A stretch of DNA of 64,000 bases. It comes from a virus. How positions within the stretch are numbered: position 1 is the first letter of the stretch; every line of letters begins with the position of its first letter. The stretch is taken from positions 12,353 to 76,352 of IMG/VR virus record IMGVR_UViG_3300010160_000036; one strand, written 5' to 3'. The translations under genes and the position numbers were made by a program. The notes beneath the pieces are model-generated. The model did not search any database. It was not told the DNA's origin and saw only the letters and a program-made list of their open reading frames with translations. This document shows, piece by piece, positions 3,244 to 14,564 of the stretch.

Positions 3244-3277
3244 ATTTGAAAAAATACTAATTTTGGAGATTACAAAC

Positions 3278-4099
3278 ATGACAAACCCGCTAAAACAATA
3301 CTTTCGCAGACCCGCAATATACATGAAACTTCCCAGTGAAGGTAAATTTTATTCAGAGGGGTCAATTGACCTACCGGATAACAAAGAACTGCCTATCTAT
3401 CCCATGACAGCGATTGACGAGATTACTAGTAAAACACCGGATATGCTGTTTAATGGCTCGGCAATAGTTGAAATTATCAGAAGCTGTGTTCCTAACATTA
3501 AAAATCCATGGGAAATCCCACAGATTGATTTGGACCCTATACTAGTAGCCATCAGAGCAGCAACCAACGGTAATAGTTTGGATATCAACAGCACATGTCC
3601 ATCATGTGAGGAAGAAGGAAAATACGGCATTAACCTTACGGGATTACTGACTTCACTTAAATCAGGTAACTATGATGAAGAAATTACTATCAATGAATTG
3701 AAATTCAAGTTTAAACCATTGTCATATAAACAAATTAATCAAGTTAATAGTTCACAATTTGAAATACAAGCGGTGATGAATGGTCTAGAAAATATAGATG
3801 ATGATGTAATTAGACAAGCTAAGACAACAGAATCTATGACAAAATTAACTGAATTGAGTATGAGTTTTGTAGCTGAATCAATAGAGCATGTTACAAGCCC
3901 GTCAGCCTTTGTAGTTGAAAAAGAATATATTTTGGATTTCTTAAAAAACTGTGATAAACAGACATTTGATGCACTAAGAAAATCTACCATTGATTTACGA
4001 GAATCAAGCGAAATTAAACCATTACGTATTAAATGCGTAAATTGCGCTAATGAATATGACCAAACATTAGTGTTAAATGCAACTGATTTTTTCGATTAA
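3278..4099 (+). CDS. Baseplate hub/tail assembly chaperone, T4 gp26-like
   Basis: ATG 3278 follows a GGAG SD. N-terminal Y..LPS.GK motif, two CxxC pairs (CPSC, CVNC), adjacent to the tape-measure gene. Confidence 0.7.
   Translation: MTNPLKQYFRRPAIYMKLPSEGKFYSEGSIDLPDNKELPIYPMTAIDEITSKTPDMLFNGSAIVEIIRSCVPNIKNPWEIPQIDLDPILVAIRAATNGNSLDINSTCPSCEEEGKYGINLTGLLTSLKSGNYDEEITINELKFKFKPLSYKQINQVNSSQFEIQAVMNGLENIDDDVIRQAKTTESMTKLTELSMSFVAESIEHVTSPSAFVVEKEYILDFLKNCDKQTFDALRKSTIDLRESSEIKPLRIKCVNCANEYDQTLVLNATDFFD
4087..4093 (+). other. -1 programmed frameshift slippery heptamer T TTT TTC
   Basis: X XXY YYZ heptamer one codon before the TAA of the gp26-like gene. The -1 frame has TGA at 4084-4086, opens at 4087 and runs stop-free into ORF 4126-4323. 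Confidence 0.7.
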
Positions 4100-4125: not shown

Positions 4126-4323
4126 GTGAGCCAATTAATTGAAAACATGGAGCAAGAGTCTAATGACATAAAGAAATCTGCATTGAAGCTATCATGGTTT
4201 ATGCGTGGAGGAGCAACCTATGAGGATATACTTAATATGTCAGATATGGAAAGAACAGCTATGTCTGAATTGATTGAAGAAAATTTGGATACAACTAAAA
4301 AGTCGGGATTACCATTCTTCTAA
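4126..4323 (+). CDS. gp51-like / tail chaperone 'T' segment, probably made as a frameshift fusion with the upstream gene
   Basis: LSWFMRGGATYEDILNMS..ER resembles the small hub-assembly-catalyst segment that follows gp26-like genes. GTG start without a clear SD. Confidence 0.6.
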   Translation: MSQLIENMEQESNDIKKSALKLSWFMRGGATYEDILNMSDMERTAMSELIEENLDTTKKSGLPFF

Positions 4324-4373
4324 CCATAGTAATTCATTTATCTAATTTACGGGTTTCTTTACTTCTCACTAAA

Positions 4374-4417
4374 AGATGAACTTCGTTCATCTAAGAACTT
4401 CACTTCGTTCGTTCTTA
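4374..4417. other. Hairpin cluster between convergent transcription units (terminator and/or DNA hairpin element)
   Basis: Perfect stem agatgaac-ttc-gttcatct (4374-4392), followed by taagaac...gttctta (4392-4417) with TTCG/TTCA repeats. Confidence 0.5.
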
Positions 4418-4464
4418 TATTTGACGGTCTATAATTCTTTTTTACAGTAAGTAGTTAAAGAGTA

Positions 4465-4823
4465 TATTGCCGATTAGAAGCCATGGTAGTGCTAATCAGC
4501 ACTACCAATGGTTAAGGACATTTGCCATGACCGTCATCCGTTGTCATTTTTCTCCCGTTTAATTGCCTATTTGAGACACTAAACGCTACCGGTTGCTCTG
4601 TAAAGTTTATGGAGCTGTAGTCAGGTCTATCAATTTATTTCAATTGACGCCTACGCAACGCACATTCTATGATTCAAAAATGAAGTCATCATAGACTTGT
4701 TGAGGGTTCGCTTTGCCGATTGCCCTCTCGGTATTCCATATGTATCACTACATATGCTTACTCTAGATCCGTCAGCACAGCACAATCTGTACAAACTCAA
4801 AGAGGTCTCCCAACGGAGACAAC
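4465..4823 (-). ncRNA. Unclassified, highly structured candidate ncRNA (~360 nt)
   Basis: Visibly more GC-rich non-coding island with at least 8 stems, including CAUAUGUA-GUGA-UACAUAUG (GNRA loop on minus, 4737-4756) and UGGUAGUGCU-GAUU-AGCACUACCA (4484-4507), plus possible 5'/3' closing pairing. Confidence 0.55.
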
Positions 4824-4839
4824 AAATTTTTATTTTAAA

Positions 4840-5409
4840 TTATTGTAATGGGGTGCTATCAAACGTGTTGATAAATTGTATGTTTGACTTGGTGTCTGTT
4901 GATGTTGAATATGTTTTTAATATATCGGTGTTGTGATTGAAGAAACTGTCAAACTCGAAAATTGTCCAGTCCCCTTGTTTTTTTGATGTGTAGTATATGA
5001 AGTTATCACTAACCCATGTTAGTTTGCTTTGACCAGCAACATAGCGACCCTTACGATTAAACTTCATAAACAAAAGATTAATATCGCCTTCGTCAGCTAC
5101 ATCCATGAGTTGGTCTATCCAAGCATCTATTACTTTACAATCACCGGTAAGTAATAGATGAAAAGGAAAGTCAGCGTAGCTTTTCGCTTCAGCATTGAAA
5201 TGCTTCCAATCATCAGGTGGAATGATATCACCTTTAAATGATTTAACTTGATTCTCACTTAGATATTCTTTTCGGTGATTGTTTGTTCCACCGATAAATG
5301 CACCGCTGTGTGCAGCCCTAACAAAAGATTCATTATAAGTTTTAGATAAAAAGTTAGCAACCTCACGTTCAAATGCGTTACCTTTATTTTTACTTTTTGA
5401 TCCACTCAT
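4840..5409 (-). CDS. Holliday junction resolvase (Hjc-type PD-(D/E)XK nuclease)
   Basis: KGNAFERE...GDII...AEAK motif pattern typical of Hjc-like phage resolvases. Confidence 0.8.
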   Translation of the reverse strand: MSGSKSKNKGNAFEREVANFLSKTYNESFVRAAHSGAFIGGTNNHRKEYLSENQVKSFKGDIIPPDDWKHFNAEAKSYADFPFHLLLTGDCKVIDAWIDQLMDVADEGDINLLFMKFNRKGRYVAGQSKLTWVSDNFIYYTSKKQGDWTIFEFDSFFNHNTDILKTYSTSTDTKSNIQFINTFDSTPLQ

Positions 5410-6019
5410 TCAATGCCTCTTTGTATAAATTAATATCTTTGTGTATTCTACTTATCAGTTCCTGATCGCAACCAAACTTTTTTGATAATGTAACATACAA
5501 TCCATGTGTATATGAAACTTGTTCTAGTTCTTCTATAATTTTTACTTTTAAGTCAACATTGGTTCTACGTATACTAGCTAAGGTGTATTTACGCTTAGAT
5601 TCATCTGATCGTTTCTTCCCGACAAGTTGAGCCCTTCTGGTTTCTATATGGGTTTCTGTCTGGATAACACCCCTTCGTTGCGTAGACCATAGATGTTTTG
5701 TTTTTTCTGTATGACTATATCCGGTATTTCCTTGCTCACCGCCGTCAGCATAATTAGTAAGTGTTCCTGTTCCTTTAATGATTCTTCCATATTGCTCTAT
5801 CAATATTTTTTCACGCAATAAAGCTGAATCTTCGGTTTCATGCTCACTATCTACCGCAATCACGGGGGACATTCCTGCAAGTTTAATCTCTTTGATAAAT
5901 TTATTTTTTAGTGGGTTGCCACCCTTCATAGTCACTTTTAACCTTCGCTTGGCACCCTTACCTACGTAGAATGGTGTATTGTTTCTCGGGTCATGTAAAA
6001 TATAAACGTACCACATCAT
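5390..6019 (-). CDS. Free-standing GIY-YIG homing-type endonuclease with NUMOD3-like C-terminal repeats
   Basis: YVYILHDPRNNTPFYVGKG..R, AL..E..LI..YG, LTN motifs; HTEKTK/RSDESKRK NUMOD3-like segments. Start placed at ATG 6019 (AAGGA SD). GATAAATA motif upstream at 6046-6053. Confidence 0.8.
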   Translation of the reverse strand: MMWYVYILHDPRNNTPFYVGKGAKRRLKVTMKGGNPLKNKFIKEIKLAGMSPVIAVDSEHETEDSALLREKILIEQYGRIIKGTGTLTNYADGGEQGNTGYSHTEKTKHLWSTQRRGVIQTETHIETRRAQLVGKKRSDESKRKYTLASIRRTNVDLKVKIIEELEQVSYTHGLYVTLSKKFGCDQELISRIHKDINLYKEALNEWIKK

Positions 6020-6077
6020 AATATCCTTTGTAAAATATACACAATTATTTATCATAATTTGTATATTTTAGACAGAT

Positions 6078-8150
6078 TTATTCTATATCTACCGCAGTGT
6101 TGTATTGCGTAAAACCGTTTTCTTTAATTACCTTAAGGACGCTCGGTACACGACCAGCTAGTTCTTCACGATGTGAAACAAGCCAAATAGATTTCTGTCT
6201 ACGACGGCTCATGTCTTTGAGAATTGCTAGACTGTTCTCAACACCCATAGTGTCAAGACCACTGTCAATTAATTCGTCAATGAACAAAGTGTTGATTGGA
6301 CTATACAATGATTCCCATACATCACGGAAAGCAAAACTTAGTCCAAGAATCAGTCTGTTACGTTCTCCCCTCGAAAGGTTATCAAAATCAAGTTCACGAC
6401 CCAACTCTGTAATTTCAACTTGCAAGTCATTCTTAAAGATAACCTGATGTGGTAAACCAATCTTATCTAGGTAGTGAGTTAATCGTGCGTTTAGATAACT
6501 CAAGTTCTGGTCAATAATCTTCTTACGAACAAAACTATCTTTGCTAGTTAACAAATCTAACAAGAACTTCTGATGTTCCATTGTTCTAGTCAATCTGTTA
6601 ATAGCATCAAAGTCAATTGCTTGTAGAGCCTGTGTCTCCATTTCAATCACTTGTTCACTATATGGATCGGTCTCTTGTGATTTGTTATCAATTTGATTCA
6701 GTATGTTATCAACTCCACTTGAATGTTTTACCGCTTCTGCTTCTGTGTCATAATGAGTAACAGGCTGAGTTCCTAAAACAACAGGAGTAATCTCATTTAG
6801 TTGTTCACTGAAAGGATTGGACTCTTGTTTCTTGTCTTCATATACTTTCTTTAAGTTAGCTACATCGCCGCTGTGACGAATAGCTTCTGCTTCTGTTTTA
6901 TACTTTGGGATAGGTTTGGAACCCAAGCTAGTAACCAATGACTGATTGCTTGACAATTTATTTTCAAGATCAGCTAACTCAGCACGGGCATTTTCAAGTA
7001 GGGTAGTCTTTTCTAATGTAACTTCTAAGTGCTTGTCATCATGGAAGTCTTGTCCACACGCATAGCACTTATGATCTTCAAGTTCTTTAACTTCCCGAAC
7101 CAATTTATCAATTAATTTTTTTTCTTTTGTGATACTTTTATTTAGGGTATCAATTATGGTTGCTATAGATTTTTGTTCAGCATCATCGTGTAGCCAATCT
7201 TTTAAGTTAGACCATGCTTGTAATTCAGCATCAATGTCATACTCATTTTTCAACAAATAGGCAGTATGTGCCACTGAAACATCACTGTTATGCTTTTGAT
7301 GCCAAGCAGTAGAACGTGCAATTAATGCATCGTATGCATCTTGTGCTTCTTTCTGCTTAATCCAAATATTCAAATCTTTATGTGCTTGCAATTCTTTGGC
7401 AATATCAATCTTGCTTAGTTCATCGTATTGAAGTGCCAAACTAGTCAAATCATCATCGTGTTTTCTCAACCACAATGTTTGTCTACGCTTCAATGCATCA
7501 ATTTGTTCTTTAACACGTTTGTTAGCTTCTTCAATAGCTTTAACTCTAAATTCTTCACTTTGAATATCATCTTTGCTACGGCGAATCATCTCTTTGATGA
7601 TTTCAGCCTTCTCGCTTAACAACGTAATACCCATCAATTGTTCAATGATATCTTTCTGTTCATTATTCTTTAATGCTAAGAATGGTTCACTATATGTGTT
7701 TAGTACAACGATGTGCCGGAACATGTCTGCTGACATGTTAATAACTTTTTCAATTGCTAATTGAGTTTCTTTGTTCTCACCTTGTTGATCCTCAGTAGTT
7801 TTTGACTGAACATCATTAACGTAGAACTTGAGAATGTTTGGCTTACGGCCACGCTCAATCTTATAGTTAGTACCATTGACATTGAATGTCAATGTAACCA
7901 GCATACCCTTACCATTTGTACGATTAACTAAATTATCTTTACGAATATTGTTAATGGGTGTACCAAACAATGCATAGGATAGTCCTTGAATTAATGTAGT
8001 CTTACCTGTACCATTTCTAGCACCATCACCACCTAAGTCTAGGTTCTCACCTAGAATCAGTGTTAAGTCTTTCTTGTCAAAGTCTACTGCTTGTGTTACT
8101 GCGCCGATACTTAAAAAATTGCGTAATGTTATGTCTTGGAGGGTAATCAT
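6078..8150 (-). CDS. Recombination endonuclease ATPase subunit, T4 gp46-like (SbcC/Rad50)
   Basis: Walker A GARNGTGKTT, CYAC zinc hook in coiled coil, signature LSRGE, Walker B LFIDE, H-loop VSH. Confidence 0.95.
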   Translation of the reverse strand: MITLQDITLRNFLSIGAVTQAVDFDKKDLTLILGENLDLGGDGARNGTGKTTLIQGLSYALFGTPINNIRKDNLVNRTNGKGMLVTLTFNVNGTNYKIERGRKPNILKFYVNDVQSKTTEDQQGENKETQLAIEKVINMSADMFRHIVVLNTYSEPFLALKNNEQKDIIEQLMGITLLSEKAEIIKEMIRRSKDDIQSEEFRVKAIEEANKRVKEQIDALKRRQTLWLRKHDDDLTSLALQYDELSKIDIAKELQAHKDLNIWIKQKEAQDAYDALIARSTAWHQKHNSDVSVAHTAYLLKNEYDIDAELQAWSNLKDWLHDDAEQKSIATIIDTLNKSITKEKKLIDKLVREVKELEDHKCYACGQDFHDDKHLEVTLEKTTLLENARAELADLENKLSSNQSLVTSLGSKPIPKYKTEAEAIRHSGDVANLKKVYEDKKQESNPFSEQLNEITPVVLGTQPVTHYDTEAEAVKHSSGVDNILNQIDNKSQETDPYSEQVIEMETQALQAIDFDAINRLTRTMEHQKFLLDLLTSKDSFVRKKIIDQNLSYLNARLTHYLDKIGLPHQVIFKNDLQVEITELGRELDFDNLSRGERNRLILGLSFAFRDVWESLYSPINTLFIDELIDSGLDTMGVENSLAILKDMSRRRQKSIWLVSHREELAGRVPSVLKVIKENGFTQYNTAVDIE

Positions 8151-12053: not shown

Positions 12054-14564
12054 ATGCCAATCATTTATGATGCGTTAGGTAATGTAATATCATCTACACC
12101 TGATAATAATTTAGGTGGAACTTCAGCCGGCGGAGATCAAACCGGAGGAGGGTCTACTACTCAAGCCGGCTCCGGCAATAATGCATCCGGTCCCACTACC
12201 ACTACTACCCAAGGCACTAGTGGTACACAAAACGCGACAAACAACACAGCCGATAATGTCAACACTAATTCCGCAGGGTCTACCTCACTACCCGGAGCAA
12301 GACCAACTAATCCACTTGCTCAGTTTTCATCATACGCATATCAGCTTAGTTGGTACATGATCTCACCTGAAGCATTTAATGCATATGTAGAAGGTGGAAG
12401 AAAAGACATAAACGAATTAAAAACTGCCGGCGGTACTAGTGGAGTTTTTCTTCTTGCTCAAAGTGGTGGTATAAACAACGATGGCCCAATCAAAAGAGCT
12501 AATGGATTTGATTTAGATTATTATATAGATAATTTAAAATTAATTTCTCAAGTAGCAACTACTATGACTGCAACCACATCTAATGTTACAGACATTTCAT
12601 TTGATATACATGAACCATATGGATTTTCATTACCAACTAAACTTAGACGGGCATATCAACATATGATCCCTGACAGTGAAATAAACAAAAAAGGGGGGAC
12701 AAATTATAATTCTCTTAGACAATTTTTTGTTTTAGGAATTAGATTTCAAGGTTATGATAAAGATGGTAACATAGCTGACTCTAGTAAATATTTTAACAAT
12801 AGTACTGAAATTATAAACAGTGATGGGGTATTTGAAACATTGTACCCAATTATGTTAACCGAACTCAAATTTAAATTAAATGGTACTGCCACAACATATC
12901 ATATAAAAGCTAAAATAGCACCTACTCAAGTTGCTATGACCATTGCTAGAGGCACAGTGGACAATAACATTGAAATAATAGCTGACACAGTAAAAAATGC
13001 ATTGTCCAGTGAGGGTGGTACCGGCAACAGAGGCATGGTGAGCCTGTTTGGTACACTGAATGTCAATGAAGAAAAGGCTGCAAAGGCAAGAAAAGACAAA
13101 GACGGAAATCCGGGTATACCAAACGAGTATAAAGTTCGTTATATTGGAGACACAGCATTATTTCGTACTGCTACTTTTAATAGTCCGGCCGATGCGGACA
13201 AGAAAAAACAAAGTATGAATTCAGCTAGCAAGCAATCTCAAGTTAACGATCATACCGCAGTAAAAGCTATATCAGATCCAATTATACGAAAAATTACAAT
13301 TGAACAAGGTACTAGCACATTACAAGCAATTAATAACATAGTAAAAAAAAGTTCTTATTTAGAAGATGCTTTAAGATTAGTAAACAATAGCGTAGAATCT
13401 CCGTCAACCGAGACTAGTAGTCCAGAATCAACTGTTACACCTGGTGCAACATCAAATACATTACGTTGGTACAATGTAACACCTGAAGTTAAAGTTAAAG
13501 GTTGGGATGGTTCAATAAATGATTATGCATACGAAATAACTTATGTTATACAACCATATGATACTCCGGCTGCAACAACACCTTACGGAAAAGTTTCAAA
13601 ATATACAGGCCCGTATAAAAGGTACGATTATTGGTTTACTGGAAAGAATACTGAAATTACAGGATATTCTCAATCATTTGATTTAACTTATTTTCTAACA
13701 GGCAACCCACCAGACGGTAATCCAGCATCAAATCAAGGAAATGCTACAGTACCAAATTACGATAACAAACGTACAGGTCAAGATAAGACTGGAAAAATAG
13801 GTGATGGTAATGAATCGCAAAACACTTACATGACAAGTTTATATGATCCAGCAGCATATACAGATGTAAAAATTGACATATTAGGTGACCCTGACTACTT
13901 GATGACAGAAGCAGCTCCTAGTGTCAATGAGCCTTATAATCAATCTTATAGCAATGAAAACTACACAATAAATCCAAATGGCGGCCAAATATTCATTGAA
14001 GTTAACTTTAATGAAGGTGTTGATTATGATAATCAAACTGGATTGTTAAAAGTCAATGAAAGTATTTTGTTTTATGATTTTGGTTATGCAGTTCCCGATA
14101 ATATTGACGGTGTCTGTTATCAGGTAAAACAAGTTAATTCTTCATTCTCAAAGGGAAAATTTTCACAACAACTATTGTGTACGATAATGACATTTCCTAG
14201 AGCAGCCGATGATAATGCAGAGTCTGCTTCTCAAAATTCAGCAAATCAAACTGAAGCCACTGCTCAAGGGAGAGGAAACACAGGGCTCAACCAGTCTGTA
14301 TTATCTACACCATCATCAGGTGCATCAACATCAACTAATAGTGGATTTACACCGGACAAGGCAGTTACTAATTCAAATCAATATAGCCCACCTGCACCAC
14401 CTGTAATTCCAGTAAGCACTCAAGAAAAATCAGCAGTACCTACTAATAATGCAACTAACTTAATAGTATCTAGCGGAGAAAATGTAGCTAATACTGGATT
14501 AACACAAGCAGGTAAAGCAAACTTAATCGATCAAGGTGGAAGAGAAACACCACCTAACCCATAA
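12054..14564 (+). CDS. Baseplate hub protein (gp27-like)
   Basis: Lies between gp53 and gp5; C-terminal I.GDP and Y.V..V.S.FS.GKF.Q.L hub-type motifs; low-complexity termini. Confidence 0.6.
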   Translation: MPIIYDALGNVISSTPDNNLGGTSAGGDQTGGGSTTQAGSGNNASGPTTTTTQGTSGTQNATNNTADNVNTNSAGSTSLPGARPTNPLAQFSSYAYQLSWYMISPEAFNAYVEGGRKDINELKTAGGTSGVFLLAQSGGINNDGPIKRANGFDLDYYIDNLKLISQVATTMTATTSNVTDISFDIHEPYGFSLPTKLRRAYQHMIPDSEINKKGGTNYNSLRQFFVLGIRFQGYDKDGNIADSSKYFNNSTEIINSDGVFETLYPIMLTELKFKLNGTATTYHIKAKIAPTQVAMTIARGTVDNNIEIIADTVKNALSSEGGTGNRGMVSLFGTLNVNEEKAAKARKDKDGNPGIPNEYKVRYIGDTALFRTATFNSPADADKKKQSMNSASKQSQVNDHTAVKAISDPIIRKITIEQGTSTLQAINNIVKKSSYLEDALRLVNNSVESPSTETSSPESTVTPGATSNTLRWYNVTPEVKVKGWDGSINDYAYEITYVIQPYDTPAATTPYGKVSKYTGPYKRYDYWFTGKNTEITGYSQSFDLTYFLTGNPPDGNPASNQGNATVPNYDNKRTGQDKTGKIGDGNESQNTYMTSLYDPAAYTDVKIDILGDPDYLMTEAAPSVNEPYNQSYSNENYTINPNGGQIFIEVNFNEGVDYDNQTGLLKVNESILFYDFGYAVPDNIDGVCYQVKQVNSSFSKGKFSQQLLCTIMTFPRAADDNAESASQNSANQTEATAQGRGNTGLNQSVLSTPSSGASTSTNSGFTPDKAVTNSNQYSPPAPPVIPVSTQEKSAVPTNNATNLIVSSGENVANTGLTQAGKANLIDQGGRETPPNP

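Follow-up and report, generated by a model that had tools for sequence, protein, structure and literature searches.

Among described RNAs, two groups stand close to the element reported here. GOLLD (RF01998) and ROOL (RF03087) are, like it, large, pseudoknotted and highly conserved non-coding RNAs of phages and prophages whose function is unknown, and in GOLLD, which was first met in lake metagenomes, a conserved part is likewise joined to a lineage-variable part. Cryo-electron microscopy structures are available for both of these large and ornate RNAs (PMC12286853). The Polynucleobacter-1 motif (RF01718) was described downstream of a phage-like gene family (GOS11034/PSSM2_218-like) in fresh water and estuaries (Weinberg et al. 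2010, PMC2864571, Additional file 1); its 3' half was not always detected, no sequenced phage carried the motif as of 2010, and it was proposed as a possible cis-regulator or small RNA (PMC2864571). Here we analyse a 64-kb stretch (positions 12,353 to 76,352, hereafter the window) of the 76-kb IMG/VR contig IMGVR_UViG_3300010160_000036, and show by comparative analysis that a gap without open reading frames (ORFs), downstream of a resolvase-like PD-(D/E)XK nuclease gene, encodes, on its minus strand, a stably folded non-coding RNA that is predicted to stand alone. CheckV puts the completeness of the contig at 22%, and the source genome is therefore probably of jumbo size; its neighbouring genes place it among the T4-like jumbo phages.

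Covariation reveals a conserved minus-strand RNA

An initial annotation, made from the letters alone, had proposed that, behind the resolvase-like gene, the minus strand specifies a candidate novel structured RNA of ~360 nt, and had named covariation among homologues, a search of Rfam and a conserved ORF as the observations that would bear on it. We found the sequence and nearly all of its listed stems at the place and on the strand given, and the proposal is supported by covariation, by an asymmetry of G·U pairing, by the lack of a coding signal and by the absence of any match in Rfam. Homologous loci were first fetched through the nuclease protein. In 22 syntenic loci the gap is kept at 70-86% nucleotide identity over 240-565 nt, which equals or exceeds the identity of the adjacent nuclease protein, and invariant blocks survive where that protein is only 55-65% identical. 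About 50 positions of the RNA are invariant, many of them unpaired and lying around the junction and the pseudoknots described below, and the RNA is single-copy in its own contig.

Covariation among these homologues, one of the checks named beforehand, is extensive. RNAalifold returned 86 pairs from 21 sequences, 46 of them with compensatory changes, and our final model of 96 pairs was tested by pair counting on 55 sequences less than 84% identical, against slid-partner and shuffle controls. The model is 93.8% paired, compared with 30.6-42.9% for slid partners, and 70 of its 96 pairs have changes in both partners. Its covariation score of 0.446 compares with 0.184 in shuffles, and not one of 500 shuffles reached the observed value on any measure.

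Folded as a single sequence, the minus strand has a minimum free energy of -113.1 kcal/mol (z -3.9; none of 100 dinucleotide shuffles was as good), and since the plus strand likewise beats its shuffles (z -3.45), folding energy alone leaves the strand undecided. The paired columns of the alignment, however, hold 239 G·U but only 42 A·C cells, from which we conclude that the RNA reads on the minus strand, as the initial annotation had argued from G-U pairs and a GNRA loop; GNRA-type loops are confined to that strand as well. Nor was the conserved ORF found that could have explained the conservation: no ORF is shared across the syntenic loci, column variability has no three-base period (0.212/0.205/0.210 by codon position), 995 of 1156 indel runs are not a multiple of three, and the longest run without a stop codon, whatever the frame, is 67 codons in the median and as little as 36.

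Helical architecture and two pseudoknots

The alignments show a fold made of a 5' domain of four helices (Pa-Pd), a four-way junction in which Pe closes Pf, Pg and Ph, and a 3' domain (Pj, Pk and Pl), whose coordinates are collected in Table 1. Taken alone, the junction domain (38 pairs) is 92.1% paired as against 31-42% when slid, with 32 pairs changing on both sides, and the window scores 162.7 bits with R1, our covariance model of this four-way-junction domain.

Two covarying pseudoknots, PK1 and PK2, were absent from the helix list of the initial annotation and were found by mutual information. The scan, run on 71 sequences less than 90% identical, recovered the helices already listed together with these two long-range pairings, both of which tie domains of the fold to one purine-rich strand just after Pj; the 5' strand of PK2 sits between the invariant strands ACUACAG and AUAAACUUUACAG. 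It also returned a non-Watson-Crick covariation of 4530 with 4473 (G/G or U/U), which joins the Pk region to the 3' tail, and showed that U4604 tracks the first pair of Pe, U4733-A4587, as a candidate base triple. The loop of Pd reads GYRA in homologues, with insertions at this place in a few. Because of this loop, the 4530/4473 covariation and the candidate triple, we argue for a predicted compact three-dimensional core of the kind found in ribozymes and in ribonucleoprotein (RNP) scaffolds.

Helices differ in how they vary. Pb is CUCC/GGAG in most homologues (a CUCY/RGAG covariation) and CAUCAA/UUGAUG in the distant relatives L024 and L192. Pl, whose 3' strand repeats the word ACUAC of the junction strand, is invariant in the 21 loci found through the protein; it also served as a search key, and its constancy in the pattern-found set therefore carries no weight. 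In loci fetched without the Pl key we observe G·U changes (GGUGGUGC) as well as the compensatory pairs GGUAGGGC/GCUCUACC and AGUAGUGC/GCACUACU. A 3-bp pairing of CGG of the 3' tail with 4823-4821 of the 5' leader is possible and weak (78.8% paired, with mostly one-sided changes). Two further pairings were rejected: a closing helix between the 5' leader and GAUAAAU past the terminator shows no covariation, and an alternative-pairing switch between GGUAGUG and the second ACUAC is unsupported, the junction copy being unchanged in the sole locus with an altered Pl (GGUAGGGC/GCUCUACC).

Nine of the eleven helices listed in the initial annotation were recovered, and two were not. Those that hold are GUCUCC/GGAGAC, all of whose pairs covary, the CAUAUGUA-GUGA-UACAUAUG hairpin, GAGGG/CCCUC, UCUAUGAU/AUCAUAGA, the variable hairpin UCAAUU/AAUUGA, CGUUUAGU/AUUAAACG, the 10-bp GGUAGUGC stem, the long-range UACCG/CGGUA and, weakly and over 3 bp, AUGAC/GUCAU. 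We find no support for GCUC/GAGC, whose strands belong to PK2 and to helix Ph, nor for UGCUGA/UCGGCA, whose 5' strand lies in hairpin Pc and whose pairing does not covary. The repeat AAUCGGCAA does occur twice in the window as noted, but divergent members do not keep the copy in the Pf loop.

Table 1. Positions of the RNA elements and of the neighbouring genes, numbered from the first letter of the window.
Feature	Positions	Strand	Remarks
A-rich 5' leader AAAAUAAAAAUUUGUU	4821-4835	minus	conservation starts here, ~10-15 nt before Pa
Pa, 6-bp hairpin GUCUCC-GUUG-GGAGAC	4805-4820	minus	6/6 pairs change on both sides; 93.4% paired
Pb, CUCU x AGAG	4761-4804	minus	4804-4801 x 4764-4761; encloses variable hairpin Pc (4796-4771)
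Pd, 8-bp hairpin	4737-4756	minus	GNRA-type tetraloop GUGA; 8/8 pairs change on both sides
Central four-way-junction domain	4587-4733	minus	closed by Pe, UACCG 4733-4729 x CGGUA 4591-4587
Pf (within Pe)	4727-4702	minus
Pg (within Pe)	4700-4662	minus
Ph (within Pe)	4659-4654 x 4597-4592	minus
Pi (within Ph)	4651-4624	minus	variable hairpin
ACUACAG (within Ph)	4621-4615	minus	invariant single strand
AUAAACUUUACAG (within Ph)	4610-4598	minus	invariant single strand
Pj, 11-bp hairpin CGUUUAGUGUC...GGCAAUUAAACG	4556-4585	minus	one bulge; 9/11 pairs change on both sides
Pk, 3-bp hairpin AUG...CAU	4527-4537	minus	weakest helix of the model; 88.3% paired; 2/3 pairs change on both sides
Pl, CCA-UU-GGUAGUGCU-GAUU-AGCACUACC-A-UGG	4481-4511	minus	almost invariant
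3' strand CUUCUAAUCGGCAAUA	4465-4480	minus	conserved
PK1, UCAUU x AAUGA	4683-4679 x 4548-4544	minus	5' strand in Pg loop; mutual-information ranks 5, 19, 39, 67, 99; 5/5 pairs change on both sides; 98.5% paired
PK2, CUCC x GGAG	4614-4611 x 4555-4552	minus	mutual-information ranks 18, 83; 3/4 pairs change on both sides; 99.0% paired
Pseudoknot 3' strands, GGAG (PK2)-AAA-AAUGA (PK1)	4544-4555	minus
A/U-rich linker	4417-4464	minus	variable in length and sequence
H1, hairpin AAGAAC-GA-AC-GAA-GU-GAA-GUUCUU	4393-4416	minus	outer stem covaries
H2, 8-bp hairpin AGAUGAAC-GAA-GUUCAUCU, then UUUU	4371-4392	minus	hairpin at 4392-4374
SbcD/gp47-like and Rad50/gp46-like genes	6078-8150	minus
PD-(D/E)XK nuclease gene, 189 aa	4840-5409	minus	Pfam PDDEXK_15; PHROG 244, labelled 'RusA-like Holliday junction resolvase'
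ORF-free gap, 516 nt	4324-4839		between the convergent nuclease gene and 65-aa ORF
65-aa ORF	4126-4323	plus	convergent downstream neighbour of the RNA, next to the gp26/gp51-like gene
gp26/gp51-like baseplate hub gene	3263-4099	plus	convergent on the RNA

Extent, 3' tail and expression

The ~360 nt first proposed hold for the core, which runs from about 4835 to about 4465, whereas the unit as a whole continues to about 4371 and comes to some 460 nt with its tail. In this tail the conserved core of hairpin H1 consists of a tandem G·A motif and a C-GAA-G mini-hairpin, and its strict pattern is present in 49 of 95 distinct tails, combined with 22 different outer stems. H2 follows H1 directly, with no gap, in 38 of 41 cases and is itself followed by 2-3 U; it has five compensatory changes at alignment pair 523/530 (RNAalifold pairs 517-536). 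We read H2 as a likely intrinsic terminator and 3' end of the RNA, and the length of ~460 nt follows from this reading. We expect expression together with the recombination operon or just after it: the RNA would be the final unit of the gp47/gp46/resolvase transcript, or have its own promoter, and would end at H2. A sigma-70-like -35/-10 pair ahead of it (4871-4866 and 4847-4842; 9/12 matches) is within shuffle expectation, and we found no late promoter upstream of the RNA, the A-rich leader being unlike the CTAAATA-like late-gene boxes of the window.

Just past H2, at window positions 4332-4343 on the minus strand, lies a AGAUAAAUGAAU box that is invariant in close homologues and has the form CAUAAAUGGAU in more distant members. 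Similar boxes, CTAAATA/GATAAATA, stand upstream of late genes at 3278, 10804, 18189 and 43063; should the box past H2 be a late promoter, its transcripts would run antisense into the 65-aa ORF and the gp26-like genes.

Genomic setting and distribution

The stop codon of the nuclease gene lies ~20 nt ahead of the first hairpin of the RNA, and the same spacing is seen in every locus of the type to which the window RNA belongs (type 1, see below). The nearest cultured phages are those of the Pseudomonas PA5oct group, at 43% identity for Rad50 and 55% for the nuclease. Between the Rad50-like and the nuclease genes stands a 221-aa ORF (5390-6055, minus strand) that has no Pfam match and only weak PHROG matches, including one to a 'homing endonuclease' family at E 6e-10, and that may be a mobile insertion within the recombination operon.

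Two independent exact-pattern scans of IMG/VR, one keyed on the invariant Pl hairpin and the other on motifs of the junction domain, each returned at least 119 loci, with RNA-bearing contigs of up to 524 kb among the matches listed. In 100 of the 101 listed loci with both flanks the RNA directly follows the nuclease gene on the same strand and faces, on its downstream side, the convergent 65-aa ORF and gp26-like genes. The RNA is kept at this site by well over a hundred uncultured jumbo T4-like phages and, among the matches listed, occurs in no other kind of genome. Its DNA comes mainly from freshwater metagenomes, with partial matches in other aquatic samples, and no copy is present in 185,579 prokaryotic (bacterial and archaeal) genomes. 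We found no description of this RNA in the literature.

Among cultured phages, R1 has no match in the whole genomes of PA5oct, Atu_ph07, Vibrio phage 2.275.O and Phosso, and SCTP-2 has no gap at the corresponding position. Two of these phages have an ORF-poor stretch of 1-1.5 kb (no or only tiny annotated ORFs) upstream, not downstream, of the resolvase gene: PA5oct at 75666-77180 (L151:9017-10531), and Phosso (L154:10410-11425), where it adjoins an RNase HI gene. Neither stretch gives an Rfam or R1 match, and that of PA5oct is not among the four non-coding RNAs reported from PA5oct RNA-seq, which map elsewhere.

Sister RNAs in the same slot and the Polynucleobacter-1 motif

Phages whose nuclease is only 47-55% identical to that of the window likewise leave 500-650 nt free of ORFs at this position. 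These sister gaps are not detected by the type-1 hidden Markov model (HMM) or covariance model. By eye they contain a Pa-like hairpin, a Pf-like GGGCUCU...AACCC, a Pg-like hairpin with a loop complementary to a downstream strand, the words UGCGUU and AACCG, a 3' hairpin and the H1/H2 tail. In one of them, L216, the 5' part matches Polynucleobacter-1 at 89.9 bits, and RF01718 was recovered in 8/8 further loci tested by a pattern scan followed by Rfam (86.7-101.5 bits). The loci with the motif are L216:1557-1701 and L300:460-599, and also L275, L278, L289, L293, L308, L338 and L341. In these IMG/VR phage contigs the 141-nt motif is followed by a further 350-400 nt of conserved, pseudoknot-forming RNA, suggesting that the catalogued Polynucleobacter-1 family looks like the 5' third of a larger RNA.

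A core of this second type (type 2) lies 140-150 nt downstream of the motif in 58 of 116 pattern loci, and the 58 loci lacking it look like chance matches. Core-bearing loci that reach far enough have the same convergent 65-aa ORF and gp26-like genes in 49 of 49 cases, and the PDDEXK nuclease is just upstream in only 12 of 51 Polynucleobacter-1-type loci. One locus, L206, bridges the two types: it has a 5' domain like that of type-1 members (blastn E 2e-9) and a core like those of L207 and L216. Of 90 non-type-1 loci searched with a profile of the type-1 H1-H2 pair, 9 have the tail, each time with the expected strand and position. A third, GC-richer variant occupies the same gap in L197-L205, ~30-560 nt past the nuclease gene, with strings such as GCAGGUAGGGGAGAGGCC...ACCUGCUUC and GGAACCUGCGGACAGGUUCC; its tail is H1-like, and neither the type-1 profile nor Rfam gives a match to it.

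The window RNA and Polynucleobacter-1 are therefore alike in slot, both occurring at the same site in related uncultured T4-like phages, and the H1-H2 tail recurs in some of the Polynucleobacter-1-type loci. The gene ahead of the window RNA is the phage PDDEXK gene, and that ahead of the motif was described as phage-like. They differ in that the 5' domain of the window RNA (Pa-Pd) is unrelated in sequence, in that profiles do not detect the core of one type with that of the other in either direction, in the position of the UACCG strand, which is 5' of Pf in the window RNA and beside AACCG in the other type, and in length, a motif of 141 nt as against a unit of 360-460 nt. RF01718 itself has no match in the window, either at its gathering score (37 bits) or at E up to 10. 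From collinear motifs, we infer that type-1 and type-2 cores may be homologous. Together these comparisons show in part that the window RNA is the type-1 variant in a mosaic family of large RNAs filling the same slot, and we conclude that the Rfam motif would be one exchangeable 5' domain of this larger family, a domain that the window variant does without.

Comparison with known RNA classes

Rfam 15 yields no match for the window at the gathering score, for 3 kb at E up to 10, or for the 422-nt stretch alone. The search named beforehand thus leaves the RNA outside every Rfam family even at E up to 10, and the claim of the initial annotation that no known class applies is right for the window RNA itself, with the reservation that RNAs in the same slot of sister lineages contain RF01718. 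The models of GOLLD and ROOL do not match either; both RNAs, which are known for RNA-only homo-oligomeric assemblies, are longer (roughly 580-800 nt as against 360-460 nt), and, unlike them, the window RNA is not beside tRNA genes, ARAGORN finding neither tRNA nor transfer-messenger RNA (tmRNA) in the 64 kb.

A faint resemblance to bacterial RNase P RNA (RF00010/RF00011) had been noted, and the two do share a similar size, a four-way junction and the short strings UAAACU...GAGCAA and GGCUU.AUCGG of Escherichia coli rnpB. The resemblance fails, however, on covariance models, on P4 consensus and covariation, and on the junction-domain model. RF00010 is silent on the whole contig yet matches 11 of 14 control genomes, and R1, run with filters off, gives E. 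coli rnpB no more than 0.7 bits. The P4 consensus (CR-I, GAGGAAAGUCC-like) is not in the sequence, an absence that the initial annotation had already noted, and the only P4 candidate, AAGC x GCUU, does not covary, its 5' strand being AAGC, AUGC, AAAC or AUAC against an invariant GGCUUC. Compared with the specificity domain (P7-P12), the hairpin at the P9-like position forms a Watson-Crick pseudoknot, and we know of no RNase P RNA with such a pseudoknot at P9.

Other classes were rejected in the same way. For group I and group II introns there is no Rfam model match, and in no locus does an ORF resume after the RNA, the nuclease ORF ending before it; for tmRNA, both ARAGORN in the window and the Rfam models are negative. 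A riboswitch or leader would need a gene to act on, and what comes next on the strand is two hairpins and then the antisense of the convergent genes, with no gene following; a leader with an expression platform fares no better, a variable linker separating the core from H1/H2. An anti-Shine-Dalgarno role of CCUCCUU was set aside, this string being the 5' strand of Pb, which is CAUCAA/UUGAUG in distant relatives. An OMEGA-type guide RNA does not fit a neighbour that is a 189-aa PDDEXK_15 protein and not TnpB, IscB or IsrB, or a variable stretch that is internal and A/U-rich.

Function and alternative explanations

In our judgement it is more likely than not that the gap encodes a stand-alone minus-strand RNA which acts in trans as a compact tertiary fold and is one variant of the mosaic family. 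Such an RNA would act during infection through its fold, and not by base-pairing or as a leader; as a best guess its role may be that of a protein scaffold or decoy, or of a ribozyme. To our knowledge large, highly conserved and pseudoknotted RNAs are rare, and most of those known are ribozymes or cores of RNP machines. A wider version of this idea, which we put forward only tentatively, is that the window RNA and its Polynucleobacter-1-type sisters are one large unrecognised class of catalytic or RNP-forming RNAs and a core component of a widespread aquatic clade of jumbo T4-like phages; ACUACAG and ACUUUACAG, clamped by the pseudoknots, would then form the active site or binding pocket, and the 141-nt motif would be an exchangeable 5' domain.

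Several observations weigh against an action in trans, or against other parts of this reading. A strictly conserved slot combined with turnover of 5' domain and core would also fit a place-bound, cis-acting function. H2 has a short U tract and is not called by a stricter terminator scan, and no promoter is established upstream of the RNA. Four metatranscriptome runs, each from a different study, yield contigs that cover, at low depth, relatives of the RNA together with relatives of the nuclease gene; they do not separate the two and give neither transcript ends nor levels, and the parts left uncovered are no evidence either way. No cultured phage carries the RNA (blastn against INPHARED; R1 on the four genomes; SCTP-2), and the homology of type-1 and type-2 cores goes undetected by HMM or covariance model and relies on collinear motifs seen by eye.

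A cis-acting role at the convergent junction, favoured by the fixed place and the turnover of modules, is the main rival, although we regard it as unlikely: the element would serve as a 3' untranslated region that stabilises the mRNA of the recombination operon, or it would insulate or terminate between the early/middle and the late baseplate operons. An invariant slot (100 of 101 listed type-1 loci and 49 of 49 of type 2) in which 5' domain and core are exchanged between lineages is in keeping with such a role, the H1-H2 pair at the junction is the most widely shared module, and on the plus strand H1 is followed by AUAUUU, from which one may read that H1-H2 could terminate in both directions. 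Yet hairpins suffice for a stabiliser or terminator, which has no need of ~50 invariant and mostly unpaired positions, a four-way junction and two pseudoknots; the linker between core and H1 varies in length and sequence, which speaks against a terminator switch controlled by the core; and the gene order of the T4-like core module is conserved anyway.

By analogy with omega RNA and reRNA, the RNA might instead guide, activate or inhibit the adjacent PD-(D/E)XK nuclease. The constant ~20-nt distance from the nuclease stop in type-1 loci and the variable stretch 4464-4417 after the conserved core are compatible with this, but we consider such a partnership very unlikely, as each of the two, the nuclease and the RNA family, is also found without the other. 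The same nuclease stands without the RNA in the cultured phages PA5oct (55% identity) and SCTP-2 (41%), and only the 12 of 51 Polynucleobacter-1-type loci mentioned above have it upstream, yet the downstream baseplate genes are kept; moreover, the protein is a 189-aa resolvase-like one and not of TnpB or IscB type, and the variable stretch is A/U-rich and followed by conserved hairpins, unlike a terminal guide. Still less credible is an element that works as DNA, such as a replication origin, packaging site or recombination hot spot, for which one could cite the better-than-shuffled folding of both strands and a location beside recombination genes at the switch of transcription direction: the excess of G·U over A·C (239 to 42) can be explained only by a minus-strand RNA, the long-range pseudoknot pairs covary, and repeats or iterons were not seen in the alignments. 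The weakest candidate of all, a very divergent RNase P RNA, group I or II intron or tmRNA, has in its favour the short rnpB-like strings and the topology of the four-way junction, whose two hairpins and long arm are reminiscent of the RNase P specificity domain, and it founders on the silence of RNase P, intron, tmRNA and all other Rfam models at E up to 10 over the 422 nt, the negative ARAGORN result for tmRNA, the R1 score of at most 0.7 bits on rnpB, the missing P4 consensus, a P4-like AAGC/GCUU that does not covary, the Watson-Crick pseudoknot at the P9-like hairpin and the lack of an exon after the RNA.

Our preferred reading, a trans-acting RNA with a compact fold, would add to the biology of these phages an uncatalogued, single-copy and strictly conserved RNA, present in well over a hundred giant phages, all uncultured, from lakes and other waters. 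The orphan motif Polynucleobacter-1, described in 2010, would seem to be a single domain within a far larger family of phage RNAs whose 5' domains are exchangeable. A covariation-supported model of 96 pairs with two pseudoknots is ready for experiment, and finding the role of this RNA could reveal a new RNA-based step in jumbo-phage infection.

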